NCBI RefSeq assembly: GCF_011630105.1
Contig: NW_022727368.1
Location: 169,157 to 233,156, forward strand
Direction of reading: 5' to 3'
DNA from: Anneissia japonica
Lineage: Eukaryota
DNA length: 64,000 nucleotides
This document shows positions 6,228 to 64,000 of the stretch, one piece after another; position 1 is the stretch's first letter; every line of letters starts with the position of its first letter. The notes under the pieces are model-generated. The model did not search any database. It was not told the origin of the DNA and saw only the letters and a list, made by a program, of their open reading frames with translations. Position numbers and translations under genes: made by a program.

Positions 6228-6314
6228 CATTTTCACTTTGTAGGTTATCAGCTATATTTGTCGCTTCACCTAAATTCATTTTCAGATTTGACCTTGTTGA
6301 CATATCCCATGATA
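6228..6314 (-). CDS. Gene A exon (SWDMSTRSNLKMNLGEATNIADNLQSEN).
   Basis: Acceptor cactgaag| and donor AAATG|gtaagt. 87 nt, phase 1 in and 1 out. Confidence 0.45.
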
Positions 6315-6386
6315 CTTCAGTGGTAAATAAAATAGTAAATCATATAATAAAATATACAGTTGGTAGTCTATGAGTGGAATACTTAC

Positions 6387-6426
6387 CTGTATTCCCACTC
6401 TGGTAATTAGATGGTTTATCAAATTT
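6387..6426 (-). CDS. Gene A 40-nt micro-exon (KFDKPSNYQSGNT). Its donor CAG|gtaagtattccactcatagactaccaac is a fragment of the DIRS-element terminus.
   Basis: Phase 0 in and 1 out joins the flanking exons exactly. The intron to the next exon is 72 nt. Confidence 0.4.
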
Positions 6427-8888: not shown

Positions 8889-8954
8889 CTGAAAAAAAGT
8901 GTAACTTGATATTATTAAGATCATAACATGACTTACTAACTCTAAAGTTAGTAG

Positions 8955-9235
8955 AAGTGGTTTGGCGCAGTGGCAACGACTTGGTATCCCAACTTTGTGG
9001 TCAGGGTTTTAATCCCTCGCTGTGCATTTCGCTTGTGTTCTAGAGCAAGACACTTTATCTGCATTGCTTCTCTCCACCCTGGAGTACAAGTGGATAGCTA
9101 GTAGGGTTAGAATGCCAAATGCACCGATTAGCTGCTACAACGTTATGGAATAGAGTTTGTGTTTCGTAAGTGTTTAGCCTGTGGTAATAATATGAAGTGC
9201 ATTTGAGACCTTAGCATGATGCACTATATAAATCT
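8955..9235 (+). mobile_element. SINE (head GGTTTGGCGCAGTGGCAACGACTTGGTATCCCAAC…). Second copy at 28505-28735.
   Basis: tRNA-like 5' region and shared body (…gtgcatttcgcttgtgttctagagcaagacactttat…ctccaccc.ggagtacaagtgg…). Confidence 0.5.
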
Positions 9236-11088: not shown

Positions 11089-11355
11089 CAGAGAACTTGA
11101 CAGAAATGTTGAAGTCCTTCCAATCAATTGGTTCAGGAGGGGGGTAATAAAATCCAGTAGTGTTGACATTTAAGCAGTACTTGGCACTGAAGAACTTATC
11201 TGTCTTGGGTAGAGCTTTGAATGGGTTGTGAGTTGGTGCTGGAGTTGTAATGATAGGCTTGATCCTCATAATAACACGGGTACAACCATCTTCGTCTTCC
11301 TCCTTAATGGTCACGTCATATGTATATTGGCGACCATTTACAGTCTCTTCTGCCA
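11089..11355 (-). CDS. Gene A exon (AEETVNGRQYTYDVTIKEEDEDGCTRVIMRIKPIITTPAPTHNPFKALPKTDKFFSAKYCLNVNTTGFYYPPPEPIDWKDFNISVKFS).
   Basis: Acceptor gatttag| and donor TCTG|gtatca. 267 nt, phase 1 in and 1 out. Lies within ORF 11018..11392. Confidence 0.5.
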
Positions 11356-12015
11356 CTAAATCAAAATTAATATCACAGTGAATATATACCAAATTTATTC
11401 AATAAACGTGAGCGTAAACCAACAATACGCCCTTATATGCACCTAGGAGAGGACGCCTGCTGTGTTAAAGGTGCACGTATTATGTATAAAGGTGCACGTA
11501 TTATGTATACTCTTGGATTACTTAAATTTGTAAGGGTTTTTTCTTGTTTTTGCAGATGGATGGCAGTATAATAATAGCAGTCAATGTTAATAAAATAATA
11601 AAACTTTCAATATACATGGTGCACACGAAAGTGTAATTACTTTATTATTAAGGAGGCTTCACAAGCTTACGAAAACGATAATGATTGTGGTTACATCATA
11701 ATTTTTGTAGTGAATCCATCCCACAGCATATATGTCACAAAATAGACGCCTTGACTTTTAAATGAATCAACGATAATATTCAGCTTGTATATGTATTGTT
11801 AATGATGTGTTAAGCACATTATTGCACGTTATTGTTTTTAAAAGGTTGCAAAATCTCCATATTATTGATACTCGCCATGCAAACATTCAAAATGTAATCA
11901 ATGTGTTAAACAATACACAAAGATTTAATGGCTTGACAAAAATAAATGTAAAAAAGACAGATATAAATGAAAAAAAAAGTTAGTGTCATTAAAAAAAGTG
12001 ACATACACCAGATAC

Positions 12016-12330
12016 TCTCCATTGTCATGCCACAGAAATCTTTCTCGTATGTCTCAGGAATTGGAGCAGAGGTTGGTACACTGAAGTCATATTGAGTGAA
12101 GAATATTCCACGATCGTTGATTTGGATGCAATCAGTTTCGTTAATATCTGTCGGACACAACATATTTTGAGGTTGTTCTGCAGCATTAAGCAGCTCCTCC
12201 AGGCAGGCTGTTGTGTTGACATGGTAACACTCTGAGGTCACATTCCATGGTAGGCAGGATGATACTGGGAACCGATAGCAGTACTCTGGGTCCCATGTTT
12301 GGTCTGGTGACCGATCATAGAACACACAAT
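12016..12330 (-). CDS. Gene A exon (CVFYDRSPDQTWDPEYCYRFPVSSCLPWNVTSECYHVNTTACLEELLNAAEQPQNMLCPTDINETDCIQINDRGIFFTQYDFSVPTSAPIPETYEKDFCGMTME).
   Basis: Acceptor tcctacag| at 12330. The donor was chosen by phase (GAGA|gtatct). An alternative donor 7 nt downstream (TCTG|gtgtat) would break phase. Part of the 11906..12325 ORF track. Confidence 0.45.
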
Positions 12331-35107: not shown

Positions 35108-36246
35108 GTTGTATTCCCAGGATTTGGCATAATTTATGTTATAGGGAGCTTTCGTGACAACATGATGCTAGAACGGAATCATTCTTGCGTGTCTGTCCTA
35201 CCAGGTGTCCTACATTCTCTGCATGCGTAGATTTGGCCAAATTGCGTGCTAGAATCCATGCAACAAGGAACTTGATGTTCTTGCATGCGCAGATGACTTA
35301 ATGACATCATTACTTTATACGTCCTGCTGTCATCATGCAATCGAAAGCTCTCTATGTCTCCTAAACTATGGAATTATTTATTTTTCCTTATGATTAGGTA
35401 CTAATTTAGATACACTGCTAAGCACAGCCAGCTAAGTGTTTAGCAAAGTGTATAAATAGGACAAGAGTGCATACTCCTGTTTGTGAAGCCAGGCACTTAC
35501 TAAATTTACAGTTAGAATAATTATTTAATAATATTTATATGAGTACATTTCCTTATAATTTAGTCGAATACAAATGTATATATGCCTGCTTGTGTTTAGA
35601 ACTTTCTTGTTTTGTTTTATGTTATTTGGAAATATAATGGAGTTTAAGCCCCTAAAATTGATTTTAATTTGTTATATTCCATTAGACCTGGAGTCTAACG
35701 CATGCATTCTACTGGCAAAAACTGGATATGATGCCTAGACTATCAGATTTTTCATGCTTCATTGGCTTTTGTTTTGCAAAAGTACATTATGTCCATTTTG
35801 ACTGGGCTGTAGAAAAAAAAATCATCAAAAAAGTACTTTAGTTGGTTCAGTTGTGTAGTTAGTACATTTACACACAAAAATCAATATAATTGAATTTTAT
35901 AACAAAATTGTAACAAGAAATGCGTTTTGCTCAATATCTCAGAACTAAAATTTTGGCTTATGCGTTCTTCCGAATCACAGCAGTATGGTCATGATGTGAC
36001 TATATATGGTCGTGATGTGATGTCATCATGACCATATTTAGGTATGTCCCATGTTTTTGTCAAATCAAAATTTTATAGCCTGGACAGGAATATAATAATC
36101 ATTGGTAATTTTATTGAATTGTGTAAATGAGGAATTCAAAACTTTACCTGAGGGTTTTTGTTTTCTCTGTTTATTGGCTAGCAGCTTAAACTGAATACAT
36201 TAAATATAATTTATATTTTTGTTTTATTATCAAATTATTTCCCAGG

Positions 36247-36433: not shown

Positions 36434-38619
36434 TAAGATGTGTTATCCTATTAAATCGGTTAATCAAAACAAACTACCTATATGATCCACACTTTTTACT
36501 GCAACAAGCCTTTGTGATTTGGCAGTGGACTCTTCATACATGGGCTAAATTTCGAGAAGCCCATCTCAAATTGAGGCTTCTTTCTTTAGTTTGCTAAAGT
36601 ACTGTAGCCTCGAAAAAGAAGCCCGCCTCGAAAATATGCCCATGGGCTTTTCAAGGTAGCATAGGCTTCTTTTTGAGATAATACAGTACACATACACTGT
36701 ACATGAATCTCAGCCATGGTTGGGGCTGAGGTAAGAACATTCATGATGGCATCTCTGGACAGCCGGAAGTTGCACTTTAGACTTAAATTTGAGTAGAATT
36801 TGCTTTTTTCCTCAATTTTTGTTAAATTTTGAAATATTTAAGAGTTGGGGGCCAGGCCTCCGATTAAATTCACCACTGGTTTAATAAGTTAACTTAGTAT
36901 TTATTTGACAATCCAATCTCTTTCTTCAGGTCTATTTGTATCAAATTTTCTAACTTGTATGTATATTGACAATATCGAAGGTCCAAGCCTTTTATAATTA
37001 TTAATTAATAATGTAAAGTATTTAATATTTGATACATTGTAAGCATAATCTCCAGAGTACTAGAAGTCATGAAAATATTCATGAAAAAGAATTAAAAAAG
37101 ATTAATTTCCAGATTTCATCAATAAACGGTCAGCTTTATTTACAGTTCTCGTAGGAAAAACAGATGAATGATAGTGGATGAATGTATAAGTTTAATAATT
37201 TTTGTTTATTTAGTTTTCTTATTTTTTACGTAGTTATGCCAGGCCCCTGCTGGGCCCGGTCCCCGGGGGCACTAACCCCAGCCTGTCAACGCCACTGGTT
37301 ATCACCTTTAATCATCATCAGCATCATTATCATCATCATCATCATCAACATCATCATTACCAGCATCTGCATTGGTATCACCAGCATCACCATCTTCATT
37401 AGCGTCAGCAACAAAATCAGCATCGTCATCGTCATCATTATCATAATCATTGTCATCAGCCTAATTCATAAGACTTGTTAGTGAATAGATGATATATGCA
37501 TTGCATCAGAGTTAGTGACGAATAAAAAAAAATTATTGTGTTGGCCAAGCCTGACCAAATGAAAATGTACTAAATTGAGGTTTGGCGTTTTGTTTTTTTA
37601 CAGGGAAAAATTTTTATTGATCTAATTTTATTTATTTTTATTTTATTTATTCATTCTGAAGTAATTATAAGTAAAAACATTCAAGGATAAAAACACAGAA
37701 TAGTACAAAAAGCAACTTATTTCCACTGTGGTCCCTAAATGAGAATACTAAAATTACAGAATAATAATAGAACAATAAGGAAACAATACAATAAAACATT
37801 TTCAGAGTCAGATTCAACCAAAATTGACATCATAAACATTAAACTATTTAATACTACTATGAAGTTTAGGTAAATAGTGGTTCTTAATGAGTTTTTTAAA
37901 TGTGTATATGCATTGTGCATTTTGAACATTATAAGGTAATTAAAGGCTGGAATGAGATTACAGTATCTCGCTGAATGGTAGGTGATGCGACAGTGTTATG
38001 CAATCATTTTCCTTTTAAATATAGATTTAAAAATGGTCTTTGTTGTATTTTTGTGTATTTTCTACTTATTCCTATTGACCTACCTTTTTTTTGGATCTTC
38101 CCAATACATGGCCAACACAATTGTATATTTGTGGCAAAGACAAGCCAAACCGTCGCAAAAAATCGATCTTGAGTTATTAATACAGGGTTAAAGAGTAAAA
38201 TAAGAGCTATAAAATGGTAAAAAAATCATTCAAATCCAACATTTCCTTATGAAGTTACAAGCATTTAAGCATACAGCTGTTTAAAGAACAATATATGAGA
38301 AATCAGTCTTCAAAGTTGATGATTTCAGGCATTTCTCATGCAGAAGCCATCATAAAATCTTTAAAAAGTGTTGTTTTAACATTGAAATTGGGAAAAATAT
38401 CGGCACAGCATGATGTATAGATACATAAACCTCAGTTTAGTGAAATAAAATAGATTTTTAAAAATTTTACATTCTAGCATGTTTTTGCTATTTTCTCTGA
38501 AACACAATTTGCGACGAGTGACTGGTTTGGCTTGTCTTTGCCACATTTATTGTTATTGTAATAGGAATTATTTTTTTCATTTTTTTAAACTTACAGTGTC
38601 TAATTTTTTTCCCCCCAAG

Positions 38620-39329: not shown

Positions 39330-40350
39330 TATAATTTATTTCATTTTTCATTTTTACTATCAGATTTATAATACATTTGTAAATGTACAGTATATAGTTA
39401 ATCTGGTCAAGGGTCGATTATTAAAAGCCAGTCAACAACTAAAAATATATCTTAACTTATTGCAATTGTATATGCATCATTTATATTTAATTATTCTAAA
39501 TGAAATTATCTTTTTTAAATTTTTATATAATTCATTTGATGATAAATTATTTATTTATTTAGCATCAATATCAAATCTTGAAAATATTCCAAATAGGTCA
39601 AAGTTCAATTATTGAAAGCAAAATTTAAAATACATTTTGAAATATCAAATGTAATAGTTCAAAAGTCAGTTATTGAAAGCAAAGCAACCAGCCTATGATC
39701 AGATTATAATACATTTTGAAGTGTATATATCTAATCTGGTCAAGGGTCAATTATTAAAAGCCAGTCAACAACTAAAAATATATCTCAACTTATTGCAATT
39801 GTATATGCATCATTTATATTTAATTATTCTAAATAAAATTATCTATTTTAAATTTTTATATAATTCATTTGATGATAAATTATTTATTTATTTAGCATCG
39901 ATATCAAATCTGAAAATATTTCAAATAGGTAAAAGTTCAATTATTGAAAGCAAAATTTATAATACATCTTTAAATGTAAATGTAATAGGTCAAGAGTCAG
40001 TTATTAAAAGCAAGGCAAGCGGCCTACTATCATATTTATAATACATTTTGAAATGTATGTATTTAATCTGGTCAAGGGTCAATTATTAAAGCCAGACAAC
40101 AAGTAAAAAATATCTTTACTTATTGAAGAATACATATCAAGTATATATGCATCATCATTTAATTATTATAAATAAAATTATCTATTTTTAATTTATATAT
40201 ATATTTCATTTTATCATAAATTATTTATTTATTTAGCACCAATATCAAATCTTTAAAATATTCCAAATAGGTCAAAGTTCAGTTTTTGAAAGCAAAATTT
40301 ATAATACATTTTGAAATGTCAAATGTAATAGGTCAAGAGTCAGTTATTGA
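39330..40350 (+). repeat. Tandem repeat, 3 x ~340 bp, AT-rich. The last unit carries the acceptor of PARP4-like exon 19.
   Basis: Units 39330-39670, 39670-40010 and 40010-40350 are about 90 percent identical. Confidence 0.7.
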
Positions 40351-43575: not shown

Positions 43576-43728
43576 ACTGATTTTGTAGGAGCAGTGTTCA
43601 AGCCTAGCATTAATGATCTTGTTGCCAATGAAGATGTGGATGATCTTCCATATGTGTGCTGGGAAGATACCGTCTATTCAAACTTTGAAATATGTTCATT
43701 GAGCGTTGAAACACCTCCTCCAGTCCAT
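43576..43728 (+). CDS. PARP4: PARP4-like exon 22 (TDFVGAVFKPSINDLVANEDVDDLPYVCWEDTVYSNFEICSLSVETPPPVH).
   Basis: Acceptor ttaatctag| and donor CAT|gttagt. Resembles human PDIPKVSELIAKEDVDFLPYMSWQGEP. Confidence 0.55.
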
Positions 43729-44057
43729 GTTAGTAGAAATTTATTTTCATTTTTATTATAACCATAATTTGGTTTTAATTGTGTATTTACTAGTATGAGT
43801 CAAGGATTATAAAATGATGTATGTGTGTATGTATGTATAATAATAATATGGTAGCGGTACACTCTAAACTGTCGTGCGGTAATGCTGTAAATATATATAA
43901 ATCAATTTTAAATAATATAATGAATAACTGCCCCAACCAGGAATTCAACCCAGAACCTTCTACTGTCTATGTATATTATTATTATTATTTGGATTTGATT
44001 AGTTTCTTAAAACTTAATATTGCATATCCGATTAAATTTTCCTAATTTTTCTTATAG

Positions 44058-44086
44058 GGAAGATATGAAGGAGATTACATCATCAG
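44058..44086 (+). CDS. PARP4: PARP4-like 29-nt micro-exon (GRYEGDYII).
   Basis: Acceptor cttatag| and donor TCAG|gtacag. Phase links exons 22 and 24. Confidence 0.35.
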
Positions 44087-44708
44087 GTACAGTATATTAT
44101 GTATTAATACCATGGTGATTGCATATTATTATTTAATTTTCTTTTGTATATTGGCATTTAAGAGTAAAAACAGTACAATTTATATACATAAGCATAAAAA
44201 GAAAAAGGTTAGTAGTACCTTATATAAAAATATTATATGTGCATGTCCAAATTATCAAAAGTTTAAAAAACAATTCTTTATTGATATTTTACCAGGTTTA
44301 ATTGACTGATTAATTAATTAACTGATTTTTACAGGAATAATGAATATTGTAGCTGATTTTGGTCTTTAAATCACTTTGCAGTCTCAGGGTCCCAGATTCA
44401 AGTCCTTCAATGTCAATGTAGTGGGGCTTCTCTTGGCCATAAAAAGAGTTAATTTTACTTTCTTTCAAACAATTTTTTTGTGTAATCCTAATTCATGTAA
44501 TATTTCCTTTGTATTAAATTTTTTTTGCCTAAGATGCATATATTTATTCATAACCATTATGTTTTTAGTGTTGTCACAAACTTGTGTAAAGCCAATCTCT
44601 TGTGTTAAACAAGTCTGTACTCGTGTACTCTACTTGTTTTCGTGAAGAAATTAAGTTTATAACATTATTTATATTATTTTCATGTCTGATTTTTCATTTC
44701 TCTCTTCA

Positions 44709-44740
44709 GCAATTCTGAGGATTCATCCATTATATGGATA
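44709..44740 (+). CDS. PARP4: PARP4-like 32-nt micro-exon (SNSEDSSIIWI).
   Basis: Acceptor tctcttcag| and donor ATAG|gtaaat. Phase 2 in and 1 out, which is the phase the mini-exon array requires. Confidence 0.35.
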
Positions 44741-46479
44741 GGTAAATCACAGTACATTTCCTTTTTTTTTTTATTGTTGATTACATTGTTTTATGTATGT
44801 CAGTGGTGGTACCAGCATGTGGGCAGGAACATGCCTGGATCCCCTGCCATCCGCCAACCATTTGCTAATGTATGTATGCATGGTATGTACATAGTACGTA
44901 TAAGCAATTAGTATAATAGCATATTATACACTAGTGGAAATTATTATACAAAGATTTAGATTAATGCATGAAAGCAGTTTTTGAATGCATTTTAATAATT
45001 TCCTCTAGTCTATAAAGCCTGTCACCATCTTTTAATGTTAGTTTCGAAAATATATGTGTGATCAAACTGTTTCAGAAGTCATCGATTGCTGTTATGGTTG
45101 AATAAATTTGCCTTGAATAACTTGCCTTCCAATCCCAGGATCCTGGGTTTGAATCCTGTCAGATTCCAAGATTTTTTCTCATGACAAAACAACTATAATA
45201 TTATGTTTTGAGTCCTGTAAAACTAGATTTTTGCACATAACTAAAATTTGATGTGTAAAATTAAATCAGTATTATCAAATATGTTTTATTCTAGATACAT
45301 AGAATATTAGGTTATTGACAACAAATTCTCAAGGTTGTAAGAGAGCACCAATCTTTAAGTGTATATTATAAATAATTTCATAGATGATAAAAACAAATAA
45401 AAATTTAATTTTCCATACACGAAACACATTTATTCTACAGATGCAGGAAAAGGACGATTTTAGCTTGGTTTAGTGTGTTCTTCTTTGGCATGCTCAGCGG
45501 GGAGCATTGGCATTGGTTTATCTTGTTAATTATCACTCACTCATTACTAGTGACATTTTCTTGTTTAGTTAGATACTTTTTAACATACTTGACTTTTTTA
45601 TGTATTTGACAAACTCCTGAAATAATATACTGATTTCAAACTAATATAAATTTTCACTAATTATGTTGTTTTATTTTACCAACGTATCCTTGTACGTACA
45701 ACACGTTTGTCATCGTCTGTACATTTCATTATACCATACAACAAGACAATTGGAGGTTCTTCATTCCCTTGTTATGCTTTTAGACTTTGGAATAATCTTC
45801 CAACTGACCTTCGGGATATTTCAAATAGAAAAGGGAGAATTCCCTTGTCTGACATGCCTGGAGCCTGTCATTCGATGCCATGACGAGGTCATCGGATCAA
45901 AAATAAAAAGATAATAATTTGCCTATTCAAATATTAACATTTTGATTGGCAGTCCCTGTGGTCTAAAAGTACAATTTCGACCATACTAAGCCTTAAAAAC
46001 TCTCCCAGTGAACCCTACCAGGCTTGACCCCTCCCTTAAATTTAAATTCAAATCAGCTGTCATACCCCCTGTCACAATATTTCTGGAGCCACCACTGGGG
46101 GAACATTGGCATTAGTTTACCTAGTTGAGTATCTCACACATTAATAATGACATTTTCCTTGTTTGGTTAGATACTTTTAGGACCCCTAAATTTTGACTCC
46201 TTTGGAAACAAACCTTCTGGTTTAAAGGGTTATCCAATGCTCCCTCCAACCTGTTTTCTGTTTCTAATGCATATAATTGTGTATTTCTTTTCTTTTGTTT
46301 GTATTCTCTGGTTTGTCTGATCTCTTTTTACCTTGTTGATGTTTTCCTCTGTTACTTTTGAATGGCTTTGTTTTGTAAATTTGTTCTATGTAATGCTTCT
46401 GTGAGCATGAAATAAAAATAACAAACTACTTTTCTGTTACAGGATTGCTACATTATGTCATGCAGTTTAAGTTTTAATC

Positions 46480-47348
46480 CAACAAAAACTCTCTTTGGAA
46501 AATAAATCTTTGTTTATTAAGGATCCCTACATGGAACCTCGAAAGTGCTAATCTGGCATGTGCTGATGATGTCATATACTTGGGTGTTAAATTCAGTAAA
46601 AATGTAAAAGGCAAAGCCCATGTTGATGATAGAATCAGCAAATGTCAGAGAGCTTTTTATACGTTAAAACATGGAGGTTAAAAGGTGCGGGCATGTGTAA
46701 ATGTAGGTTCGTCAACTGATGTCAAGTTACAGTACATGTCTTGAACACTGTTTTGGAACCGATCCTGAGTTATGTGGCCTACAATGCATAAATTTAAGTG
46801 TGAGCTCTTTACGAGAGTTGGAAAAAAAATCCAGATTAAATTGATTAAAGCATCATTAGGCCTTCCAAATCTCTGTGATAATCTTTAAGATCGTTGATAG
46901 TTAATTTTGTGTTTAAATTTTTCACCCATTCTTGACGATGGGCTTGTGGAAACCGATGGAGCTGGTAGGGCTGAATACAACAGGAGCAATCCTTGCGAAA
47001 AAATCCCTGGTTGGGACACAACTCGTTTTTCCATTGTTGAAGCTTAAATTGGCTATTACTGCAGCCATTCACCTGGCAAATCTTTCTTGCACCTTTTCCA
47101 CTCATTCTTTTATTCCGGAGAATAATGGCTTAAAGTATTTCACAAAAGAATTTAACAACAAAAGAAAACAATCGCTTCGCTACTCTACTTTACAGTAACT
47201 GTAATGTATGTAAAAGCATAGGCACTTCCGGGTATCACTGGTACACCGCGGTGTCGTTGTACCCCAGGCAAGGTTGCCAGGTTAACGAAAGTTTTCTATC
47301 CAATTATCGCGAAAATGGTGTATACAGCTCTTACTCATGGTCTTAATC
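46480..47348 (+). mobile_element. Degenerate non-LTR (LINE) reverse-transcriptase fragment (…NLACADDVIYLGVKFSKNVKGKAHVDDRISKCQRAFYTLK…).
   Basis: An xADD RT motif followed by a LINE-type downstream motif. Many stops. Ends at the adapter junction. Confidence 0.35.
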
Positions 47349-47386
47349 CTGTCTCTTATACACATCTAGATGTGTATAAGAGACAG
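47349..47386. other. Exact Illumina Nextera mate-pair junction adapter, CTGTCTCTTATACACATCT + AGATGTGTATAAGAGACAG (Tn5 mosaic end and its reverse complement, abutted).
   Basis: 38/38 nt identity to the junction adapter. This is a library-construction artefact, not native sequence. Confidence 0.9.
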
Positions 47387-48480
47387 GTTCAATGGCAATT
47401 TGAATACAAGAATCTAAGTTAAGTTAAATGGCAATTTGAATACAAGAATCTAAGTTAAGTTAAATGGCAATTTGAATACAAGAATCTAAGTTTTAAAGTG
47501 TATTTAGATTTTCATAATTTTTACAATTTTAATATATAATCTATGGTAGGTGGATGGGCATTCCATAATTAAACATATTTAAAACACATCCTTATATCAA
47601 CCGGGCCATCCATGCGACGTGCCCTATTAGTGGTAATGGCAGTAATTTACAGTCCTTTTTGAAACCCTTGTTTTTTTTTTGTAGGTGTAGGGGATCCCTG
47701 GGGACCAACTTAAAAAAGGCAATGAACGTTATTAACAACAAAAACAAGAAAAGGAGTTAGGTGCTTTTTTATAGTAGTAGCTTTTACTGGGACTAAACCT
47801 AATTGTCAGAATGACCGTAGTATCATGATATTATCAGGAGAATTAATTTATTTTAAATGATTTTAATGATTTAATTTGATATTCAGTTGTGGCAAGAAGT
47901 CCAAAACCAAAACTAAAAAACGTTTTCATTCAGTTAAAAGCAGAGGGTAAGTAAAAACATGAAGGTATTATAATACCTCCATGGTAAAAACACAAGTAGC
48001 TTGTAATTTGATGCATGCTACATTGTTTAATGGAGGAATAAGTTTAGAATGAAATTAAATTCATGTAAGAATTTAAACTAATTCCTCCATGATTGTATAT
48101 TGCACTTGTCTTGGTGGAGATTAACCAGTGATGGTATCAAATGACAGATTCTATAGGACAATGTATTGTTTACTTGTGCTAAACAAAGGAGTGCAGTCAT
48201 TTCATTAATGTAAAATTAGCAGAAAATATTGTGATTTAATGGTTAAAGGAATATATTGCTAACATAGCTGACATTCTGTTAAATAGATGTGCAGGATAAT
48301 GCACATCTAAATGATAGGAAGCTTTTGATTTGTGCAACAACGTGACACTAGGACTGATTCACTCATGCATGACCGCCCTGTATTCTTTGCACAACATATA
48401 TTTGGCCAAATTGCGTCCTGGAATTCACGCAACCCTGTGAACTGCACATTGTGATACTCATCAGCACTGAAAACATGCAA
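47387..48480. repeat. Segmental duplicate. 47387-47826 ≈ 51837-52252 and 47995-48480 ≈ 54665-55135 (each >95 percent), i.e. the two flanks of the DIRS element.
   Basis: Near-identical long matches by inspection. Begins immediately after the mate-pair adapter. Internal (aaatggcaatttgaatacaagaatctaagttaagtt)x3 mini-repeat. Confidence 0.7.
47887..47946 (+). CDS. PARP4: Array mini-exon (VVARSPKPKLKNVFIQLKAE), phase 1/1.
   Basis: Canonical ag/gt splice signals. Symmetric phase matches exon 24. Lies downstream of the adapter junction, so genomic placement is uncertain. Confidence 0.3.
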
Positions 48481-49446: not shown

Positions 49447-50369
49447 GTTTGTCTCATCTGTTTAAATTCCTTTGACCAGCATTTTGTTAGTACATACTCT
49501 CAGGGGAATGTTAGGCCAGTGGTGACACCATTGGGTTGGGAGGGGGTGGGAGCTCTTCTGCAATTTAATGGTGGCATTCCCATTTTAATTTCTATAGCTT
49601 CTTTTATTTTCCTTTTGAATGAATGAGTCTCTTCAGTTAGTGCTTTTATTTTATTCCAATTAATTGTCCAGTGATTTTACAATGTTCTGCTACCGCTGAA
49701 TGTATTTTAACACGTTGATTTAAATGTTCCTTGACACGTGTGTCTAATGATCTTGCGGTTTCTCTGATGTACGATTTTCCACACGTATCACACCAATAGT
49801 TGGCATGCACTTTTTTATCAAGTATAAGTAGGGTTGGAAATTTGCAACATACAGTATTTTTTGGCGATTCCTTTCCGGTTTGTTGTGGGAATTGGCGCGA
49901 AAAATGGTGTTTGTATAAGAGTTATTATTAAAGTGGGTGGGGTGGTGGTTGGAAATTATGAACATATTTTGGGAGATTTATTTTATAGAAAGGATTTTGC
50001 GGTGGGTGGTTATTGTTCTTACTACTCTTCTATACTTCTTATCCTCCTCCTTCTTTCGAATAATGCCAAAATTTTTAACCCATTTAGGCAACCGGCCTAT
50101 AGACCATCTATGGACTAAAGAGAGATTTGTTGTTAATAAACTTAAATAAGTGTATTAAATGACTATATTTAAACAAAGGCTAGTGGAAGAGCATTTCGAA
50201 TCTATGAACAAGGGTCAAAATATGAACATAGGGTCAAAAAGCATTTCGCAAACACAACCAAGCCAAAATCTACGGGTAATTTTTTTTTTTTTTTTTTTTA
50301 AATGCTGACCAACTAACCCCAATATAAGTTAATGTGTTATGTTAATTATCAATTCCTCATCATTTTTAG

Positions 50370-50420
50370 GCCGTGGGAAATCATCTGGACAACTAGAAAT
50401 TTACTATGAAGCGAAGATGC
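50370..50420 (+). CDS. PARP4: Array mini-exon (RGKSSGQLEIYYEAKM), phase 1/1.
   Basis: Acceptor atttttag| and donor ATGC|gtaagt. Paralogous in position to the 51430 unit. Confidence 0.3.
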
Positions 50421-50928
50421 GTAAGTATCACTCATCAATTCATAATTAATTAATCATAATTATTAATTATTTGTACAATGCTATTTCAAGTGTTCTTCCA
50501 TTATTTTCTTGTAAAAATTAAATAATATCAAGCAAAATTTATAATAATAATTAATAGTATATTAAAGCTTAAGGATCATTAGTTTAGAATAAATAATAAC
50601 TTCATGGATGAATTTAAACTAATTCCTCCATGATTGTATATTGCACCAGTGGCAGTGAACTTGAACCAGTGATGGTATCAAATGACATAGATTTCTATAG
50701 GACATTGGATTGTTTATTTGTGCTAAACAATGGAGTACATTTAATTTCATTGGTATAAAGTTAGCAGGAAATATTCAGATTGGTTGTTTAAAGTAATGTA
50801 TTGGGGTTTCCTTTTTGGGGTGTTGGGTGGGGTGAAAGATCGTGTTTGTTTAAGAGAAAAAATGAAACATATTTTTGGAGACATATAGAAATAGATTTGC
50901 AGTAAACAGACATATGCTCTGATTGCTC

Positions 50929-50934
<6 letters not shown>

Positions 50935-50996
<62 letters not shown>

Positions 50997-51065
50997 AGTA
51001 TTATTATTATCATTATTTTATTATTATTGTTATTATTTTTATTATTGTTCTTATTATTCTTATTC
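50935..51065. repeat. (ATT)n microsatellite, about 40 units.
   Basis: Direct inspection. Explains the poly-Ile ORF 50747..51013. Confidence 0.9.
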
Positions 51066-51429
51066 CTCTTTAAAATTCTTCTTATTTTATTGAATCGGAC
51101 ATTGCTCGACTTTTTAACACATTTTAGGCCACCAGCCCATAGAGTAACCTTAGACAGAACAGAGATTTGTTCTCAATCTAGTAGCAACATTGAGAAACTT
51201 AAATACATTTATTAAATGATTATATCTAAACAAAGGCATGTGGAAATGCATTTAGAATCTGTTAACCTAGGGTCAAAATTATATTTTCCATTGCCCAAAC
51301 ACAAAACCAAACCAAATTCTAGGGTATTCTTTTTCCTCTTTTTTTTTTTATTTTATAAGAAATGCTGACCAACTGACCCTGATATAAGTTACTGTGTTAT
51401 GTTATTTATCAATTTTTTTTTATTTGTAG

Positions 51430-51486
51430 CTCGTGAGAGATCTTCTAAAACAAAAGTAAATCTCCGTTCTTTAGAATTGGAATGTA
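51430..51486 (+). CDS. PARP4: Array mini-exon (RERSSKTKVNLRSLELEC), phase 1/1.
   Basis: Acceptor tatttgtag| and donor TGTA|gtaagt. The flanking intron sequence is paralogous to the 50370 unit. Confidence 0.3.
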
Positions 51487-52252
51487 GTAAGTACAGTGTC
51501 ACTCTTACCAAATCATAATTAATTAACCATAATTGTTAATTACTTGTACAATGCTACTTCCTGTCTGCTTTCATTATTTTCTTGTAAAAACTTAATAATA
51601 TCTAGCAAAATTTATAATTAATAAATAAATAATAATAAATTAAATATTAAAGATATAATAAGAATTATTGATTAAAGAGAGGATAATCTTGGCAGCATCA
51701 GTCTCAGAAGTGAAAGTTCAAAGATGAAGAGAGTTCCATAATTTTGAAAACTTACTTTAGCAATTTGAAGTTTAGTAGGTGAAAAAGTGAAAACCTACTT
51801 AAATGGCAATTTGAATACAAGAATCTAAGTTAAGTTAAAAGTTCAATGACAATTTGAATACAAGAATCTATGTTAAGTTAAATGGCAATTTGAATACAAG
51901 AATCTAAGTTTTAAAGTGTATTTAGAGTTTCATAATTTTTGCAATTTTAATATATAATCTATGGTAGGTGGATGGGCATTCCATAATTAAACATATTTAA
52001 AACACATCCTTATATCAACCGGGCCATTCATGCGACGTGCCCTATTAGTGGTAATGGCAGTAATGTACAGTCCTTTTTGAAACCCTTGTTTTTTTTTTGT
52101 AGGTGTAGGGGATCCCTGGGGACCAACTTAAAAAAGGCAATGAACGTTATTAACAACAAAAACAAGAAAAGGAGTTAGGTGCTTTTTTATAGTAGTAGCT
52201 TTTACTGGGACTAAACCTAATTGTCAGAATGACCGTAGTATCATGACCATTG

Positions 52253-54685
52253 TTCCCAAAACGGAACACCCCTTCGAAAAAAAATGGAACAGTCCGACCC
52301 AAGGCGCCACGTGCGAACCGTCTCCCTAACAAACGTCCTCATTCCCTTTTTGACGTTGTTCGAAGTCGGATACATTCTAGCCTTTGAAAATTACTAGCAG
52401 ACTTTTCAAGCAATTCTGTTCTCCTTGGATTTATTTTTGCTTTGGATTTATTTTTGCCTTGGATTTATTTTCAACTTGTGGTTGACAAGATATCCTTTTT
52501 ATTGTAGTCTCGTACGTATCAGTTCAAAGTTCTTCCCTTCGGTCTATCCACAGCTCCTCGGGTGTTTACACGGGTGGTAAAATCCCTAGGTGCAGTGTTC
52601 CATGCGAGAGGGATACGTATTTTCATGTACCTAGACGACTGGCTCGTGTTCGCAAATTCCCGAGCAACTCTGTTGCATCATCTCAGCATTGTCTTAGACA
52701 TGACGGAAACAGTAGGGTTCATTATCAACCGGGAGAAATCGGTTTTGGTTCCCACGCAACTTCCGCTGTATCTGGGGGCGCACATCGATCTTGTTAGTTC
52801 AGTGGCGTTCCCCTCCACGAGTCGGATCCGCAAGTGCCAGCTAGCAATCACTCAGCTTCTTTCCCTTCCGGATTCCCCAGCCGAGTCGTGGCTGCGGATG
52901 TTGGGGTTTCTCGCGAGCCTGGTAGACCTAGTTCCTTATTGCCAGCTTCATATGCGCCCTCTTCTACTGCATCTGCTCGCGTTTTTCTCTCCAGCATCTC
53001 GGGACTTGTCAGCTCAGATTCCCTTGAATGCATTTGTCGCCAGGCACCTCCGGTGGTGGCTTCAGGGGAACGTGCTTCAGGGTTCCCCGACCCTCTCCCC
53101 GTCTTTCGCTCACGGAACGCGTCGTGGGGGACTGGTCGCTGGAAGAATCCACCAGTCACATAAACGTTCTGGAGCTTTTAGCAGTTCGTCGGTCTCTGGA
53201 GGCCTTCGTCGATCGGGCAAAGGGGAAAGCTATGCTAGTTCATTCCGAAAGTTCAACCGTGGTCTCCTACATCAACCATCAGGGCGGCACGCATTCACTA
53301 ACGCTATGCTTCCATACATGGCAGCTCCTGCTTTGGTGTCTCAGCCATCGCATTCATCTTCGAGCAGCTCACATTCCCGGCCGACTGAATGTCCTCGCTG
53401 ATGTGCTGTCTCGACGTCAGTTACCTCCACTCCGTCCGACGGAGTGGAGGCTGTGTCCGGTCGTGGCCCAGCATATTTTCAACACGTTTGGGCGTCCCAA
53501 CCTAGATCTGTTTGCGACGAGCTCGAACACTCAGCTTCCGACGTTTTGCTCCCGGTTTCCGGAACCAACAGCGTGGGCAGTGGATGCCCTGTCCATCTCA
53601 TGGGACGGGTTTTGGGCTTCGGGTTCCCGCCCTTATCGCTTCTTCCGAGGGTGATGGCGCACATCCGTCGCCCCCCATTGCAAGGTTCTCCTGATAGCGC
53701 CATGGTGGGCCCGCCAGGGTTGGTTCCCACTTCTGCTGAGTCTTCTCTTCGAGCATCCCTGTGTGTTGCCGGTTCATCCGGACCTTCTTCAACAGGCCCG
53801 GTCGTGGGTCGGCCTGAACCATTTAACATCGCTGAACTTGACTGTTTGGCCCTTATCCGGGATAATCTCCAAGGTTCAGGCATTCCAGATGGCCCTGCCG
53901 CCATCTACAACAGTCGCCTTAAGCACTTCCTCCTGTGGTGTACCGATCACGAAGTGGATCCTATGTCAGCCTCTCTGGGTCAGGTGTGTCTCTTTTTGCA
54001 TTATCTGTTTGAGTCGGGTCTCAGATTCGCATTTGTTTGTGTCTTCAGTTCGGCCCCACGGGCCTGCTTCTGTTGATACCATTGCTCGCTGGGTGGTTTC
54101 GGCCATCCAAGCTGCTATGCGTCGGCTCGCAAGCCGCCGCCTGCCCACATGCATGAGGTTCGCGGCACGGCGGCTTCTTGGGCTCTCTTTTACGGGGTCC
54201 CCCCTCGCCGACATTCTGGCAGCGGCATGGTGGAGATCGGAGACTACATTTTCATCTTGCTACTTGTGGGATGTCTTGTCGACCCAGGCGTCAGTAGCGG
54301 CTGCTGTGTTGAAGCCGTCTCTGTAGGTAAGTCTTCTGGTTTCTGATCACGCCCGCCTCCTCTTTACGCTGCTAATCTGGCAATTAGTCGGTTATCCAGG
54401 TAAGTATTCACAAAGTAGACTACACAAATCAATCGTGATGTTGGTAGTCTATGAGTGAGATACTTACCTGGATAACCTTCCCTCCCTTCCTACCCTCGCC
54501 GTGATCGTGTCGATCTTTAGGGAATGAGGACGTTTGTTAGGGAGACGGTTCGCACGTGGCGCCTTGGGTAGGACTGTTCCATTTTTTTTTTCGAAGGGGT
54601 GTTCCGTTTTGGGAACAATGGCAATTAGTCGGTTATCCAGGTAAGTATCTCACTCATAGACTACCAACATCACGATTGATTTGTG
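52253..54685 (+). mobile_element. Truncated, frameshifted DIRS-like tyrosine-recombinase retroelement. RT (YLDDW), RNase H (HINVLELLAV), the AFPPF…APWWPRQGWFP region and a YR domain (HEVRGTAASWA … AGRWRSETTF … Y).
   Basis: Inverted terminal repeats 52253-52355 and 54521-54623 are reverse complements of about 103 bp. An internal complementary hairpin lies at 54371-54490. ORFs 52562..54326 sit in three frames. Confidence 0.7.
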
Positions 54686-55216
54686 TAATTTGATGCATGC
54701 TACATTGTTTAATGGAGGAATAAGTTTAGAATGAAATTAAATTCATGGAAGAATTTAAACTGATTCCTCCATGATTGTATATTGCACTTGTCTTGGTGGA
54801 GATTAACCAGTGATGGTATCAAATGACAGATTTCTATAGGACAATGTATTGTTTACTTGTGCTAAAGAATGGAGTGCAGTCATTTCATTAATGTAAAATT
54901 AGCAGAAAATATTGTGATTTAATGGTTAAAGGAATATATTGCTAACATAGCTGACATTCTGTTAAATAGATGTGCAGGATAATGCACCTCTAAATGATAG
55001 GAAGCTTTTGATTTGTGCAACAACGCGACACTAAAACTGATTCACTCATGCATGACCGCCCTGTATTCTTTGCACAACATATATTTGGCCAAATTGCTTC
55101 CTGGAATTCACGCAACCCTGTGAACTCAACGTTCTCGCATTCCCAAATGACTTCATGAGGACAGCTCGCTTAACATCCAGATGCTACATCTTTTATCAAT
55201 TCTTTATCTTTTTTAG

Positions 55217-55264: not shown

Positions 55265-56189
55265 GTAAGTATCATTCTTATCAATGCATAATTAATTAAT
55301 CATAATTATCAATTACCTGTGCAATGTTTCTTCAGGTCTTTTTTCATTCTTTTTCTTGTAAATATTTCTTGAAATCCACATATCCTGGAATTTACACATC
55401 CGAAAATGCTTATCAGGTCAACAAGGACACAAGTTCACATCCACACCTGTCCACTACTATATCGTATTGCACGTAAACACATTGGTAGTTGTCATCAGAA
55501 TGCTAACTCCCATCTTTGAATAGAGTTTTTCTTATTGAGGTTTCTCGAAAGTGTCCCCTTGATTAGGAGTTCCACTGCATATCGAAGTACTGTAGTGTCT
55601 CGTAACAAAAATATGTTACTATTTGATAAGCATACTTATTAAAAAAAATAATTATCTAAAGTAGCTTTTCAAAGATTTGTTGATTTCCATCATTTTCATC
55701 TGACTGTTAATTATGACAGTGGTTGCTAGCACCTTTCTCATGTTTTGATTCGATAATGCCCACTATTTTAGCTAGTAGGCACTAAAGGGTAAATGCCCGT
55801 CAATAGTAGGTCTAGACAAATAAGGAGCACAGGATGCGAATGAGTAACACAACACCGTAAAGTTTCTAAAATTACAAGACCAAAACAATTCAACAAACAT
55901 CTGTCTGACTAAGATTATAGTATGCTGCCGGCGCAAATTACTAACAATAGCTAATATGTTATCAAGTTATTTTATTTAAGAAATGTTTTTTTTTTCGATG
56001 TTTTCATAGGAATCTTCTGATTTTTACAGTATATAATTTTAACACTTAAGCTTTTCTGTATAATTTTTTTGAGATGAGACCCAGATGCAATCCAACTACA
56101 CTCAACAATTCACTCACGACCCAAACTTGGGTTGCCGATGGGTTGCCGATGTTAGATCTAGAGGTGCTATGTACATAAAATTGTGTACC

Positions 56190-56300
56190 TAACCCCAGCC
56201 ATGGTGGGGCTCATGTAGTGTAGAACCTTCATTTGTCATAGTTCTTCCCTGCACCCCCTCTATTTCAAATTCCTGGATTTTCCATTGTTCCCCAAGTTCA
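56190..56300. repeat. Dispersed short repeat family with core CCATGGTTGGGGCTGAGG … CTCTATTTCAAATTCCTGGAT. At least 10 copies (5285-5400, 19330-19480, 20395-20530, 30940-31090, 36700-36830, 56520-56650, 56810-56950, 57175-57300, 58085-58220, 61030-61450).
   Basis: Recurrent conserved blocks in both orientations. One copy accompanies each mini-exon unit at 56-58 kb. Confidence 0.5.
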
Positions 56301-56373
56301 GTACAATAATGAATGCAGAACTTGAGACCGGTGATGTTTAATTTATTTTTATTATTGTATTAATTAGATTCAG

Positions 56374-56421
56374 CTCTCTCACGTCCATTGTCTGACCTTA
56401 GTATGAAGGATGAAGAAAATG
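56374..56421 (+). CDS. PARP4: Array mini-exon (LSRPLSDLSMKDEEN), phase 1/1.
   Basis: Acceptor ttagattcag| and donor AATG|gtaagt. First of four 48-nt paralogues. Confidence 0.35.
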
Positions 56422-57016
56422 GTAAGTATAAATAAAAGTGACTTGTACAGTATTATTGTGATCAGATATTCTTATTACTGGACAGCAGACAAAAACTAAA
56501 GTCTTATAGTGCCATGTCTGGTCATCTAGAGGTGCTATAATCATAAATTGTTGGGGCTGAAGTGATCTAGACCCCCCCCCCATCTGTGAAAGTCCCTTCC
56601 TGGACCACTCTATTTGGAATTCCTTGATCCGCCAATGACACCCGTGGTCCATATGTTCACTAGTCTTTATATGATTCATTGGTCAATGATCAATGTTATT
56701 TTTTTTTTAAATATTCTCTATTGTATCTGTAGATGCTTTTCTGTACTTTTCACTCACGACCCAAACCTGGGTCACTACCCATGGGTTGCCGATGTTAGAT
56801 CTAGAGGTGCTATGTACATAAAATTGTGTACCTAACCCCAGCCATGGTGGGGCTCATGTAGTGTAGAACCTTCATTTGTCAAAGTTCTTCCCTGCGCCCC
56901 CTCTATTTCAAATTCCTGGATTTGCCATTGTTCCCCAAGTTCAGTACAATAATGAATGCAGCACTTGAGACCGGTGATGTTTAATTTATTTTTATTATTG
57001 TATTAATTAGATTCAG

Positions 57017-57064
57017 ATATCTTACCTCCAATGCATATGCTTAGTATGAAGGATGGAGAAAGTG
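57017..57064 (+). CDS. PARP4: Array mini-exon (ILPPMHMLSMKDGES), phase 1/1.
   Basis: Identical splice context (attagattcag| … |gtaagtataaataaaagtg) to the 56374 unit. Confidence 0.35.
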
Positions 57065-57381
57065 GTAAGTATAAATAAAAGTGACTTCTATTATTGTGAT
57101 CTGATATTCTTCTTACTAGACATCACACAAAAACCACCCAAAAAAAGTCTTAGAAATGCCATGTCTGGTCATCTAGAGGTGCTATAATCATTAATTGTTG
57201 GGGCTGAAGTGATCTAGACCCCCCCCCATCTGTGAAAGTCCCTCCCTGGACCACTCTATTTTGAATTCCTAGATCCGCCAATGACACCTGTGGTATCATT
57301 GACTAGTCTTTATATGATTCGTAGGTCAATGATCAGTGTCAATGATCAATTTTTTTTTATTATTGTATTAATTAGATTCAG

Positions 57382-57429
57382 CTATGGCACAACCAACCCG
57401 AATGCGTAGTTTTGAGGAAGAAGACAATG
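57382..57429 (+). CDS. PARP4: Array mini-exon (MAQPTRMRSFEEEDN), phase 1/1.
   Basis: Same unit structure as the other 48-nt paralogues. RMRSF followed by an acidic tail. Confidence 0.35.
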
Positions 57430-57568
57430 GTAAGTAAAAATAAAAGTGGTTTGTATTATTGTGATCAGATTTTATTCTTATTGGAAATCAGACAAAAACC
57501 ACTAAGGATGATTTGTAGGTCAATGATAAGTGCTATTTTTTTTTTAATGTTCTCTATTGTATCTGTAG

Positions 57569-57613
57569 ATGCTGATGAGCCGAATCATAGTGCCTTTTTC
57601 TGGAGAGCCAGAG
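57569..57613 (+). CDS. PARP4: Array mini-exon (ADEPNHSAFFWRAR), phase 1/1.
   Basis: Acceptor atctgtag| and donor AGAG|gtttgt. A paralogous copy at 56737 is disrupted by a SINE. Confidence 0.3.
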
Positions 57614-58276
57614 GTTTGTAACTGCTTTTGTTTTCTTGTAAATATTTTATCAAAATAAATTACTCTTTTATTAGTACTGTACTTCATTTTTACATTTACG
57701 TGCATACAAGTCGATAAGGAATTTGTATACAGAGAAACTGTGAAAATATTGCACTTTCAAGTTTCTAAAACTACAAGACCAAAACAATTCAACAAACGTC
57801 TGTCTGACTGAGATTATTGTATACTGCTGGCACAAATTAAAGACAATAGCCAATATGTTATCAAATTATTTTATTTTTAAGAAATGTTTTGTTTCGATGT
57901 TTTCACAGGAATCTTCTGGTTTTTACATTAATTTTAACACTTATGCTTTTCTGTATAATTTTTTGAGATGAGACCCAAATGCGATCCAACGACACTCAAA
58001 AATTCACTCACGACCCAAACTTGGGTCACTACCCATGGGTTGCCGACCGTAGATCTAGAGGTGCTATAAACATAAATTGTGTACTAACCCTAGCCATGGT
58101 GATGCTCATCAGGTAGTGCTAAGAACCTTCATTTGTCAAAGTCCCACCCTCCCCCTCTATTTCAAATTCCTGGATTTGCCACTGTTCCCCTATTTTCATT
58201 ACAATAATGAATACAGAACTTATTTGGGACCTGTCATGTTTAATTTTTTTTTTATTATTGTATTAATTAGATTCAG

Positions 58277-58324
58277 CTAGGGCACGACCAACACGAATGC
58301 GTAGTTTTGGGAAAGAAGAAAACA
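58277..58324 (+). CDS. PARP4: Array mini-exon (RARPTRMRSFGKEEN), phase 1/1.
   Basis: Same unit as the 57382 exon, at 78 percent nucleotide identity. Confidence 0.35.
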
Positions 58325-59825
58325 GTAAGTAAAAATAAAAGTGGTTTGTATTATTGTGATCAGATATTATTCTAATTGGAAATCAGACAAAAACCACCAA
58401 GGACAATAACCACCAGACAAACACCAACCAAAACTGATTATACCATTGTTAAAGCGGGGTGGACAGTTGGGTAGACTTGTATATATCTAGCTATACAATA
58501 GGATAGTTTACATTCTGACTTCCTATTATACACTTATAGAAAAATACTTGCTTCCTAGCCTAGCCTACCATCCCACTAGGTACCCATTTATACTTAATTA
58601 TTATACAAATTATTGATCGCACAGAACTCCTCAGATGTTATTTTCGGGCATATAGAATACAAAATTTTCCTGGGGTAGTGTTGTCTCTCGATCGCACCCC
58701 CTCTGGCCTTTCGAACATCTATGGATCTGCTCCTGATAGGGAGCTGTCGATTTGCACAAGGACGCAACTCTTGAACAGATTCAGCCACTGCACTACATAG
58801 ATTTGGTCAAATTGCATTCTAGAATCCACACGACCAGGAGAGCTTAACATTTTCGCATGCACAGATGACTTTTCAGTGACGTCCTTACATTCCACATCCC
58901 ACCACGTTATGGTGCTAACGTCCCAGACCTATTAAAAACTGATCAATAAATCAAAGACTTTCTAGAATGGATTGTCATGTTCCAAGGAAGGAATGATTAA
59001 ATTTTGTTAACGATTTGGAGTAGGTGTGGATATGAGGGCTATATAAAGGGAACTTCCCAGGCCAGATGTTTTAAAAATAATAAATGTGGTAAAGACAAGC
59101 CAAACCAGTCACACATCGCAAATTGTGTTTCAGAGAAAATAGCAAAAACATACTAGAATGTAAAATTTTTTTTAATCTATTTTATTTCACTAAACTGAGG
59201 TTTATGTACAGTATGTATACATCATGCTGTGCTGATATTTTTCCCAATTTCTATGTTAAAACAACACTTTTAAAAGATTTTATGATTGTTTCTGCATGAG
59301 AAATGCCTGAAATCATAAACTTTGAAGGCTGATTTCTCATATATTGTTCTTTAAACAGCTGTATGCTTAAATGCTTGTAACTTCATAAGTAAATGTTGGA
59401 TTTGAATGATTTTTTTACCATTTCATAGCTCTTATTTTACTCTTTAACCCTGTATTAATAACAACGAGTGACTGGTTTGGCTTGTCTTTGCCAATGCATC
59501 TGAAAACCTTTCTGGATTTTTTCATCATGGCTAAAGAAAATAGTATGCATTAGGGTGTGTATGTGGAAACCCTTAAAATTGAACGTCCCAGACCTAAATA
59601 TCTCAAAGACTGATCAATGAATCAACTGAATGAAACTTTCTAAAATGGTCTGTCATGGTTGATCTAAGGAACAATGATCAAAGGCTCCCAGTAGCTACCA
59701 GATCGCACATAACTAATAATGCATTCATATGAGCCAGTTGGTTATGTTCACTTTGTAAGCAAAAGCTCTCAGTTTCAATGGAGATTGAGAATGTTTTTCA
59801 TTCTTTAAATTTTTTTTTTCCCAAA

Positions 59826-62035: not shown

Positions 62036-64000
62036 GTTTGTACTTCTTGTGTTTTCTTGTAATATAAAATGTTAAAGGCTGCGTTTATACAGCACTTATT
62101 ACTTTACGTTTTGTTATTTTTTGCTGCGAACCTTGGCCCAATGTTTCCGATATGTTATTTGATGAGAATCAGATAATTTATCAGAAGCAGCTCCAAAATA
62201 CTAAAAAAAATTAACTTTTGACCAAGGTCAAATTTCGGTACTGTACACACACAGAATTATTTTTTGGAACTTTAATTTGTGCGAATGTTCTCAGGCAACT
62301 AGGCCTATTATCAAAACACTTTAATAAATAGTGAGTAATTTTTTTCCGGCTTATTATTAAAAAAAAGACTTGACATCCACGGTGCAGCCCAGCTACCCTG
62401 GGCCTAGGTCTGACCATATTGTATATTGTACCGTAAAATACACCAATGCTGCATTCATTTTCGTTGATACTTCAAAATATATATATGTTATCTTTTTTTT
62501 TTTGTCTTAACTTTTTTTTTCATTTTCTTTCTTGTGTTTTCTTTTCTTTTCCTTACCTTTTCTCTCTTATGTTTCCTTATCTTTTTCTTCCCCTTTTCTT
62601 TCTTATGCTTCCTTTTTATTTTCATTTCTTTACTTTCTTATGTTTCCTTGACATATCCTTTTCCTTGTTAGTAGTATATTAAGAAATTTAATATTATTTG
62701 GCAATTCAAAATACTGAAGAAGAGTAAAGTACAAATTGAGTTTTTGCTTTAGTTAGTGAGTGTACTATTAATTAGTTAGTGAAGAATCTTTTTATTTGTG
62801 CGACGACGTGACACTAGAAAGGATTCACGCATGCGTGATCGTTCTATATTTTCTGCACAACGTTCTCACATGCGCCAATGACTTTATGTGATGCCATTAC
62901 ATTCTACCGTCGTCGTGAAATTGAAAGTTCCCTATTACTTTTTCTATAATTGCTGTTGCTGATGTTTGTTATAGTGGAAAAGTATTTTATTATAGAATGA
63001 AATATCAGTTGTTTTTTTTTTTTTCATAAAAAAAAAACAATTGAAGTTTGCCATCCCAAAACCTGCATCAGCAACCAAAAAATGATATTGACTTTTTGAT
63101 ATTCACATTCTCCACATTATAAACTTTAAATTGATGGGTAATTTACTGGAATCGACTGACTGTTGCCAAAGTTGTGAGTGAAAGTATTTTGTCACTGTGC
63201 ATATTATTTTGTCTTTATTTTATTTGTAGATATACTATGTGATATGTTATCCCGTGGATCATCATCTCCCCAACTTGGTGCCAATGGTTTGTAACTTCTT
63301 GTGTTTTCTTGTAAAATAAAATGTTTTGGGCTCTGTTTCTGCAGGACTTACTACTTTACATTTTGTTATTTTTCATTGCAAACCTGTGCTCAAAGTTTCC
63401 TATATATTACTTGATGAGAATCAGATAATTTATCGGAAACAACTCCAAAATACTAAAAAAATTTAACTTCTGACCAAGGTCAAATTACAGTTCAGTACAC
63501 GCAAAGAATTTTTTTGTACCCGTGGGAACTTCTTTAATTTGTGAAAATGTTTGTTAGGCAACTAGGCCCAGTATCTTTTCAGTCAGTCAGTCAACAGTAG
63601 ATTTTCTTTGTAGCAAGTCAATAATCCAATCAATCCTGGGACTGTGGTTATTGGCATGAGTTGCAGAGTGGAAACACATTCTTCTTAGGTCAATATTAAA
63701 ATTAGGATATTTCTCTTGGACAGATGATGAGAGCTCCGATCCCTGGACAGACAGGATTATTACCAGCTTTATTTTACATATTTGTCTATACTTAGTCCTA
63801 TCCTCTTTTTCTTTTTCCGACCTTTAGCACATTCTCATCTGAGTTTTAAAGAAAAAATAGAATGATCCTGCCATCCTGCTAATCTTAATCGAGCTGATGG
63901 CCCCAACAAGCTAACCACCACCCACCACTACTAATTACATCTGCTATCTTGCTGTTATGTAAATATTCACGCATTCTTGTCATGAGCCATGTTCTTTGGA

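Follow-up and report, generated by a model that had tools for sequence, protein, structure and literature searches.

An untrimmed mate-pair junction adapter within a scaffold of Anneissia japonica, probably marking a falsely closed gap

The 64 kb stretch of Anneissia japonica scaffold analysed here (hereafter the window) contains at 47349-47386 the full 38-bp junction adapter of mate-pair libraries, a synthetic sequence that is a technical contamination and not a biological feature. Considering the sequence itself, the literature and the recurrence of the same 38-mer in other assemblies, we regard it as highly probable that an untrimmed junction adapter entered the assembly at the gap-filling stage and that a scaffold gap was falsely closed at this site, the error being local and the order of the flanking sequences being preserved. 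The scaffold would be mis-filled at 47.35 kb, where local sequence, repeat structure and features called across the site are not to be trusted. The observation is of value only for data hygiene, in that it flags a quality problem in this and other assemblies.

The sequence CTGTCTCTTATACACATCTAGATGTGTATAAGAGACAG is present as a single exact copy in the window and is still the sole match when three mismatches are allowed. It was absent from all of 100 dinucleotide-preserving shuffles of the window and, by our own arithmetic, would be expected by chance 2 x 64000 / 4^38, i.e. about 2e-18, times. It is made of two copies of the 19-mer AGATGTGTATAAGAGACAG, whose only two exact matches in the window abut with no spacer: one in forward orientation at 47368-47386 (+ strand) and one in reverse-complement orientation at 47349-47367 (- strand), which reads CTGTCTCTTATACACATCT on the + strand. 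This 19-mer is the Tn5 mosaic end (ME), an engineered sequence; a literature text search found it together with the phrase 'mosaic end' in 60 papers. The Illumina Nextera mate-pair junction adapter (CTGTCTCTTATACACATCT followed by AGATGTGTATAAGAGACAG) and the window are equal at 38 of 38 bases, with the same head-to-head arrangement, no spacer and no sequence difference, and both are tied to mate-pair libraries, which were used for the source genome. An identical 38-mer has been reported as the biotin-labelled ring adapter serving to circularise fragments of ~4 kb for mate-pair sequencing (PMC7357533), and the NxTrim preprint describes how the Nextera mate-pair protocol joins circle ends via an adapter whose 38-bp remnants need computational removal (10.1101/007666). 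The exact match, the published ring adapter and the 38-bp adapter of NxTrim all bear out the first-pass annotation, which had read the 38-mer as the exact junction of ME and its reverse complement produced by mate-pair circularisation. Elsewhere in the 64 kb window, no further fragments of Illumina or Nextera adapters were found, and the window holds no N bases.

The 38-mer recurs across numerous unrelated draft assemblies but has no match in finished E. coli genomes, a distribution that likewise upholds the earlier claim that it is technical. An exact scan with one genome per species retrieved it in at least 120 stretches of unrelated bacterial and archaeal assemblies; the hosts among the matches listed are Pseudomonas, Enterococcus, Collinsella, cyanobacteria, Streptomyces and others, and nearly all of the records are at scaffold level. 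It was also detected in seven viral contigs and in five plasmid records, but not in any of 5,426 complete E. coli genomes (28 Gb) or of 50,697 phage records. These assemblies have in common with the window the identical 38-mer within otherwise contiguous sequence; in them, the adapter is often located beside repeats (IS1, IS5) or near N gaps, with no annotated feature beneath it. Among the matches listed, Candidatus Enterococcus wittei and Pseudomonas sp. HS-2 contribute the most adapter-bearing loci. Several bacterial scaffolds contain two to four adapter copies spaced 70-130 bp apart, resembling fills stitched from multiple junction reads.

The A. japonica genome was sequenced from five short-insert and six mate-pair libraries, the latter with inserts of 2-18 kb (PMC7351957). 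Contigs were assembled by Platanus from the short-insert reads only, at k=69; scaffolding was performed by Platanus with inward (-IP) and outward (-OP) pair libraries and was followed by gap filling with GapCloser 1.10, the long-insert reads being used without error correction (PMC7351957). The mate-pair kit goes unnamed in that study, with no occurrence of 'Nextera' in the main text or in the supplements searched. The source assembly combined circularised mate-pair libraries with a step that adds read sequence. A mate-pair junction cannot occur in contigs assembled from short-insert reads, and scaffolding introduces nothing but Ns; the adapter is therefore expected to have entered at gap filling. 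Once the contigs are made, GapCloser is the sole source of additional read sequence, making gap filling the likely point of entry and the site likely a former scaffold gap. In the scenario that we propose, tagmented fragments of 2-18 kb would have been circularised, joining two Tn5 mosaic ends head to head, and the contig graph (k=69) would have broken at this site owing to a ~1 kb unit starting at 47388 and its second copy. GapCloser would then have used two different junction reads, one ending at 47348 to extend the left edge and one starting at 47387 to extend the right edge, the gap being 'closed' on the 38 bases common to all junction reads. Such a two-read merge would leave at the adapter a stretch, probably small, that has been lost, duplicated or wrongly filled. 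The two bases that directly abut the adapter are probably not adjacent in the genome; the larger flanks are probably in the right order, because independent read-pair links set that order before filling.

The left flank of the adapter (46000-47348, ending in ...GGTCTTAATC) has no second copy in the window over its last 1.2 kb, as judged by self-BLAST, and its last 150 bp show no similarity to the 150 bp preceding the second copy of the right flank (local score 8 vs a shuffled mean of 9.5). The right flank opens, from the first base after the adapter, with 2.9 copies of a 36-bp tandem repeat (47387-47492, + strand), whose counterpart in the second copy is at 51799-51914. This array belongs to a unit that we call W1 (47388-47828, + strand), similar to W2 (51799-52246, + strand) with 96.9% identity when gaps are counted and 98.4% when they are not, the two differing by 7 mismatches and a 7-bp indel within the tandem repeat. 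It is followed by 173 bp private to copy 1 (47829-48001, + strand), with no other match in the window, at the place where copy 2 holds a retroelement, and then by X1 (48002-48443, + strand), similar to X2 (54684-55126, + strand) with 97.7% identity counting gaps and 98.0% ignoring them. The second copy of the right flank thus begins 4.4 kb downstream, and the W and X copies lie 4.4-6.7 kb apart and are ~98% identical. Similarity with W2 begins at the first base past the adapter and ends sharply at 48443/55126, beyond which the sequences are unrelated (1.5 kb after copy 1). Older partial copies of X, ~81% identical, are found at 50578-50803, 62784-62861 and 35214-35264. The first-pass annotation had described the right side as entering a near-perfect duplicate of 51837-52252: the duplicate is real, but it is ~97-98% identical and not near-perfect, its coordinates are 51799-52246, and the middles of the two copies differ (173 vs 2437 bp). 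The exact runs common to both copies measure 86, 181, 64, 70, 117 and 62 bp; those of 86, 181, 70 and 117 bp exceed k=69, and contig breaks and gaps are therefore expected exactly here. The adapter site is a discontinuity, as supported by the onset of the downstream similarity right after the adapter, by the unmatched left flank and by the lack of a 9-bp target duplication.

Two other repeats were noticed in the same region. A (TTA)n microsatellite of ~46 copies (50929-51064) lies between ~71%-identical units at 50010-50576 and 51042-51654, and a tandem array at 55860-58400 consists of ~640-bp units, 83-94% identical (e.g. 56109-56715 vs 56749-57364), with a C-rich run in each.

The geometry of the junction was compared with that expected from the protocol. 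By our argument on orientation, a circularised fragment running from S to E would yield a junction read in which the sequence ending at E is followed by the adapter and then by the sequence starting at S, with S located upstream by the insert size. Had a single junction read served as the fill, a copy of the right flank would be expected 2-18 kb upstream, or a copy of the left flank downstream. In the window, neither an upstream copy of the right flank nor a downstream copy of the left flank was found; unlike one intact Nextera junction read, the flanks show no such recurrence, which disfavours a single-read origin and leaves the identity of the adapter unaffected. A survey of adapter placement covered 157 copies in 127 loci among the matches listed, of which 17 were too near the locus edge, 18 lay within 150 bp of an N run and 122 were testable. 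Proper mate-pair geometry was observed at 54 of the 122 testable copies, often as a tandem duplication of 100-400 bp around the adapter, local recurrence was absent at 55, and improper recurrences alone, like those of this window, were seen at 13; no adapter among the matches listed was flanked by a 9-bp duplication. We thus rejected the single-junction-read model, i.e. a tandem duplication produced by walking round the circle, as neither flank recurs properly here, in contrast with the 54 of 122 sites listed elsewhere. An in-place insertion with the 9-bp target duplication of Tn5 was also discarded, as the 9-mers flanking the adapter, GTCTTAATC and GTTCAATGG, differ. The observed geometry fits a merge of two reads, without proving it.

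Three adapter-bearing plasmid records could be compared with near-identical, adapter-free relatives that provide the true sequence. In K. variicola NZ_CP032357.1, ~45 bp of trbI are replaced by the 38 bp with respect to pQL2 (NZ_CP106965.1), both flanks being in place. In K. pneumoniae NZ_MF918372.1, a 25-bp stretch that its relative p69-2 (NZ_CP025458.1) has only once is duplicated, with one copy on each side of the adapter. The E. coli record NZ_MF589339.1 has 236 bp (118 bp foreign, the adapter and 80 bp foreign) in place of the 262 bp found between IS1 and IS5 in pHNAH8160R (NZ_CP104600.1). In all three cases the error is local and the outer flanks keep the order of the clean relative; the errors of NZ_CP032357.1 and NZ_MF918372.1 are what is expected if two junction reads, one extended from each edge, were merged on the 38 bases. 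For the plasmids, loss and gain are known exactly from the clean relatives, whereas the crinoid locus was examined in this one assembly copy. As the trbI example illustrates, the 38-mer, widespread in draft assemblies, can break real genes: NZ_CP032357.1 is a 'complete' plasmid record with the adapter at 152659-152696, for which the PLSDB table gives no trbI coding sequence, whereas the TrbI/VirB10 gene is intact in pQL2, its near-identical relative.

Among the alternatives to a local gap-filling error, the one with the most in its favour, which we nevertheless judge unlikely, is haplotype redundancy: 47387-48443 would be the retroelement-free allele of 51799-55126, left unmerged and wedged into the scaffold, with the adapter at one of its edges. 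The similarity begins exactly at the adapter, a near-identical copy lies nearby, the chief difference between the copies is the presence or absence of the 2.4 kb retroelement, and the remaining differences (~2% in substitutions and the 7-bp indel in the tandem repeat) are in the range expected between alleles of a marine invertebrate. Two ~98% copies less than 5 kb apart, one of them with a transposable element insertion, do resemble the haplotypic false duplications of short-read assemblies of heterozygous genomes; the window differs from these in that similarity stops at the right end of the copies, the left end being cut by the adapter, and in that diverged older copies occur nearby. Past 48443/55126, copy 1 runs with neither adapter nor gap into 1.5 kb of unrelated sequence, and haplotype redundancy would therefore need a second, undetected false join. 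Furthermore, a simple empty site would have none of the 173 bp that copy 1 has of its own, and the three older ~81% copies of parts of X make it clear that the element is genuinely repeated. It is possible, though less likely than not, that the ~1 kb W-X unit downstream of PARP4 is a genuine and very recent local duplication, or a pair of alleles differing by the 2.4 kb retroelement. If this is true, the assembly would mix or truncate a polymorphic repeat cluster, and the adapter would hide its real structure.

A more radical reading is that the adapter joins unrelated loci, for example by inter-molecular ligation, so that all sequence to the right of 47387 comes from elsewhere. Junction chemistry does join fragment ends that are not adjacent, the flanks lack proper mate-pair geometry, neither a gene model nor conserved synteny bridges the adapter, and the right flank could derive from any copy if W-X is a dispersed repeat. 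Read-pair links, on the other hand, fixed the order of the contigs before filling, and one bad fill moves no contigs; the outer flanks were collinear at all three adapter sites checked against clean relatives; and a ~98% copy only 4.4 kb away, with older copies nearby, fits a local repeat cluster. We consider such a long-range chimera quite improbable. The first-pass annotation had proposed a chimeric join: a discontinuity at the site is supported, but an adapter alone is no proof of a join between distant loci, and the errors in the three plasmids were local. Finally, the 38 bp could be a true perfect palindrome native to the genome, for example a hairpin, the precursor of a miRNA or the end of a transposon. 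They are able to fold into a perfect stem of 19 bp, and Rfam returns weak miRNA-like matches to mir-3910 (26.2 bits) and mir-511 (23.4 bits). These matches fall far short of their respective gathering scores (95 and 80 bits), have E-values of 0.11-0.36 and arise because the 38-mer is a perfect palindrome. The equality of 38 of 38 bases with a synthetic reagent and the exact recurrence in unrelated bacteria, viruses and plasmids, with no occurrence in finished E. coli genomes, reduce the probability of a native origin to a negligible level.

The element that splits copy 2 is a retroelement remnant with a reverse transcriptase domain at 52247-54683 (2437 bp, + strand), recognised from Pfam, inverted repeats and base composition. 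Its GC content is ~56% against a background of ~35%, and its ORFs are frameshifted. The RVT_1 domain was detected by Pfam with E=2.5e-8 and 34.3 bits, above the cut-off of 29.6. Inverted terminal repeats of ~100 bp (52247-52347 vs 54519-54621) are 97% identical over 103 bp. The reverse transcriptase domain and the inverted terminal repeats of DIRS-like tyrosine-recombinase retroelements are thus both present, and the architecture looks DIRS-like, a resemblance drawn from motif reading only; a search of the downstream ORFs for a tyrosine recombinase gave no Pfam match even at E<=5. A 57-bp internal segment recurs as a perfect inverted copy at the right end of the element (54421-54477 and 54631-54687).

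Upstream of the adapter, the window contains a real PARP4 gene on the + strand, whose exons over 19877-43743 correspond one by one, in collinear order, to those of the Antedon mediterranea gene, the last exon conserved between the two being at 43576-43743. The hand-joined + strand exons of 26.1-43.8 kb match the A. japonica PARP4-like protein XP_033113003.1 with 94% identity and 100% coverage, the runner-up protein being that of Antedon (73%), and the exons of XP_033113003.1 map onto the window at 96-100% identity. The final pieces of the RefSeq PARP4-like coding sequence are at 44058-44084, 44708-44881 and 45783-45911, with the stop at 45914. The adapter is located 1.4 kb past this annotated coding end and no annotated coding exon crosses 47.35 kb, leaving the PARP4 gene model unaffected by it. 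The first-pass annotation had extended a 3' mini-exon array of PARP4 across this position; this proposal is not sustained, as the coding sequence ends at 45911/45914 and no conserved exon occurs near or beyond the adapter. Beyond 43.7 kb, no alignment was obtained between the Antedon mediterranea locus and the window, and Antedon synteny is therefore uninformative, either way, about the join. Exact-protein look-ups for independent contigs returned none for the ORF at 46845-47105, the A. japonica PARP4-like protein and the Antedon isoform X2, and returned the locus for isoform X1.

The last ~110 residues of XP_033113003.1 (44058-45914, + strand) are encoded by three ORF pieces without counterpart in the Antedon orthologue; they read as hydrophobic, low-complexity, intron-like sequence, suggesting that the annotated C-terminus of the PARP4-like protein is probably wrong. 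A 61-bp exact inverted repeat has one arm inside PARP4 (38246-38306) and the other downstream of it (59329-59389), 21 kb apart, and is likely a transposable-element fragment shared by the two sites. Within a PARP4 intron, a near-exact direct repeat with a 333-bp period (39454-39566 and 39787-39899), in which the ORF text VKGQLLKASQQLKIYLNLLQLY... is repeated, stems either from a recent tandem duplication or from a further error of gap filling.

The adapter is itself traversed by an ORF of 35 amino acids (47315-47422, + strand), in the frame of which it encodes VSYTHLDVYKRQ, a peptide for which a literature search found no paper. As the adapter has one open frame, it can create false ORFs or link genuine ones together; this ORF, like any hairpin or miRNA predicted on the palindrome, is an untrustworthy call. 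The ORF adjoining the adapter (46845-47105) returned no homologues in a homology search, and its candidacy as a THAP zinc finger was dropped, as Pfam gave no support. Scans of 45.5-56 kb for tRNAs and Rfam families revealed nothing real. At the opposite end of the window, a run of long ORFs of 786, 347, 454, 179, 139 and 124 aa occupies 260-12325 on the - strand. Their products are rich in cysteine and in N-x-S/T motifs; no Pfam domain was detected in those tested, and the 454-aa ORF at 7612-8976 has no homologue among 5.8 billion proteins. This run may correspond to a lineage-specific gene for a secreted or surface protein, with unusually large exons.
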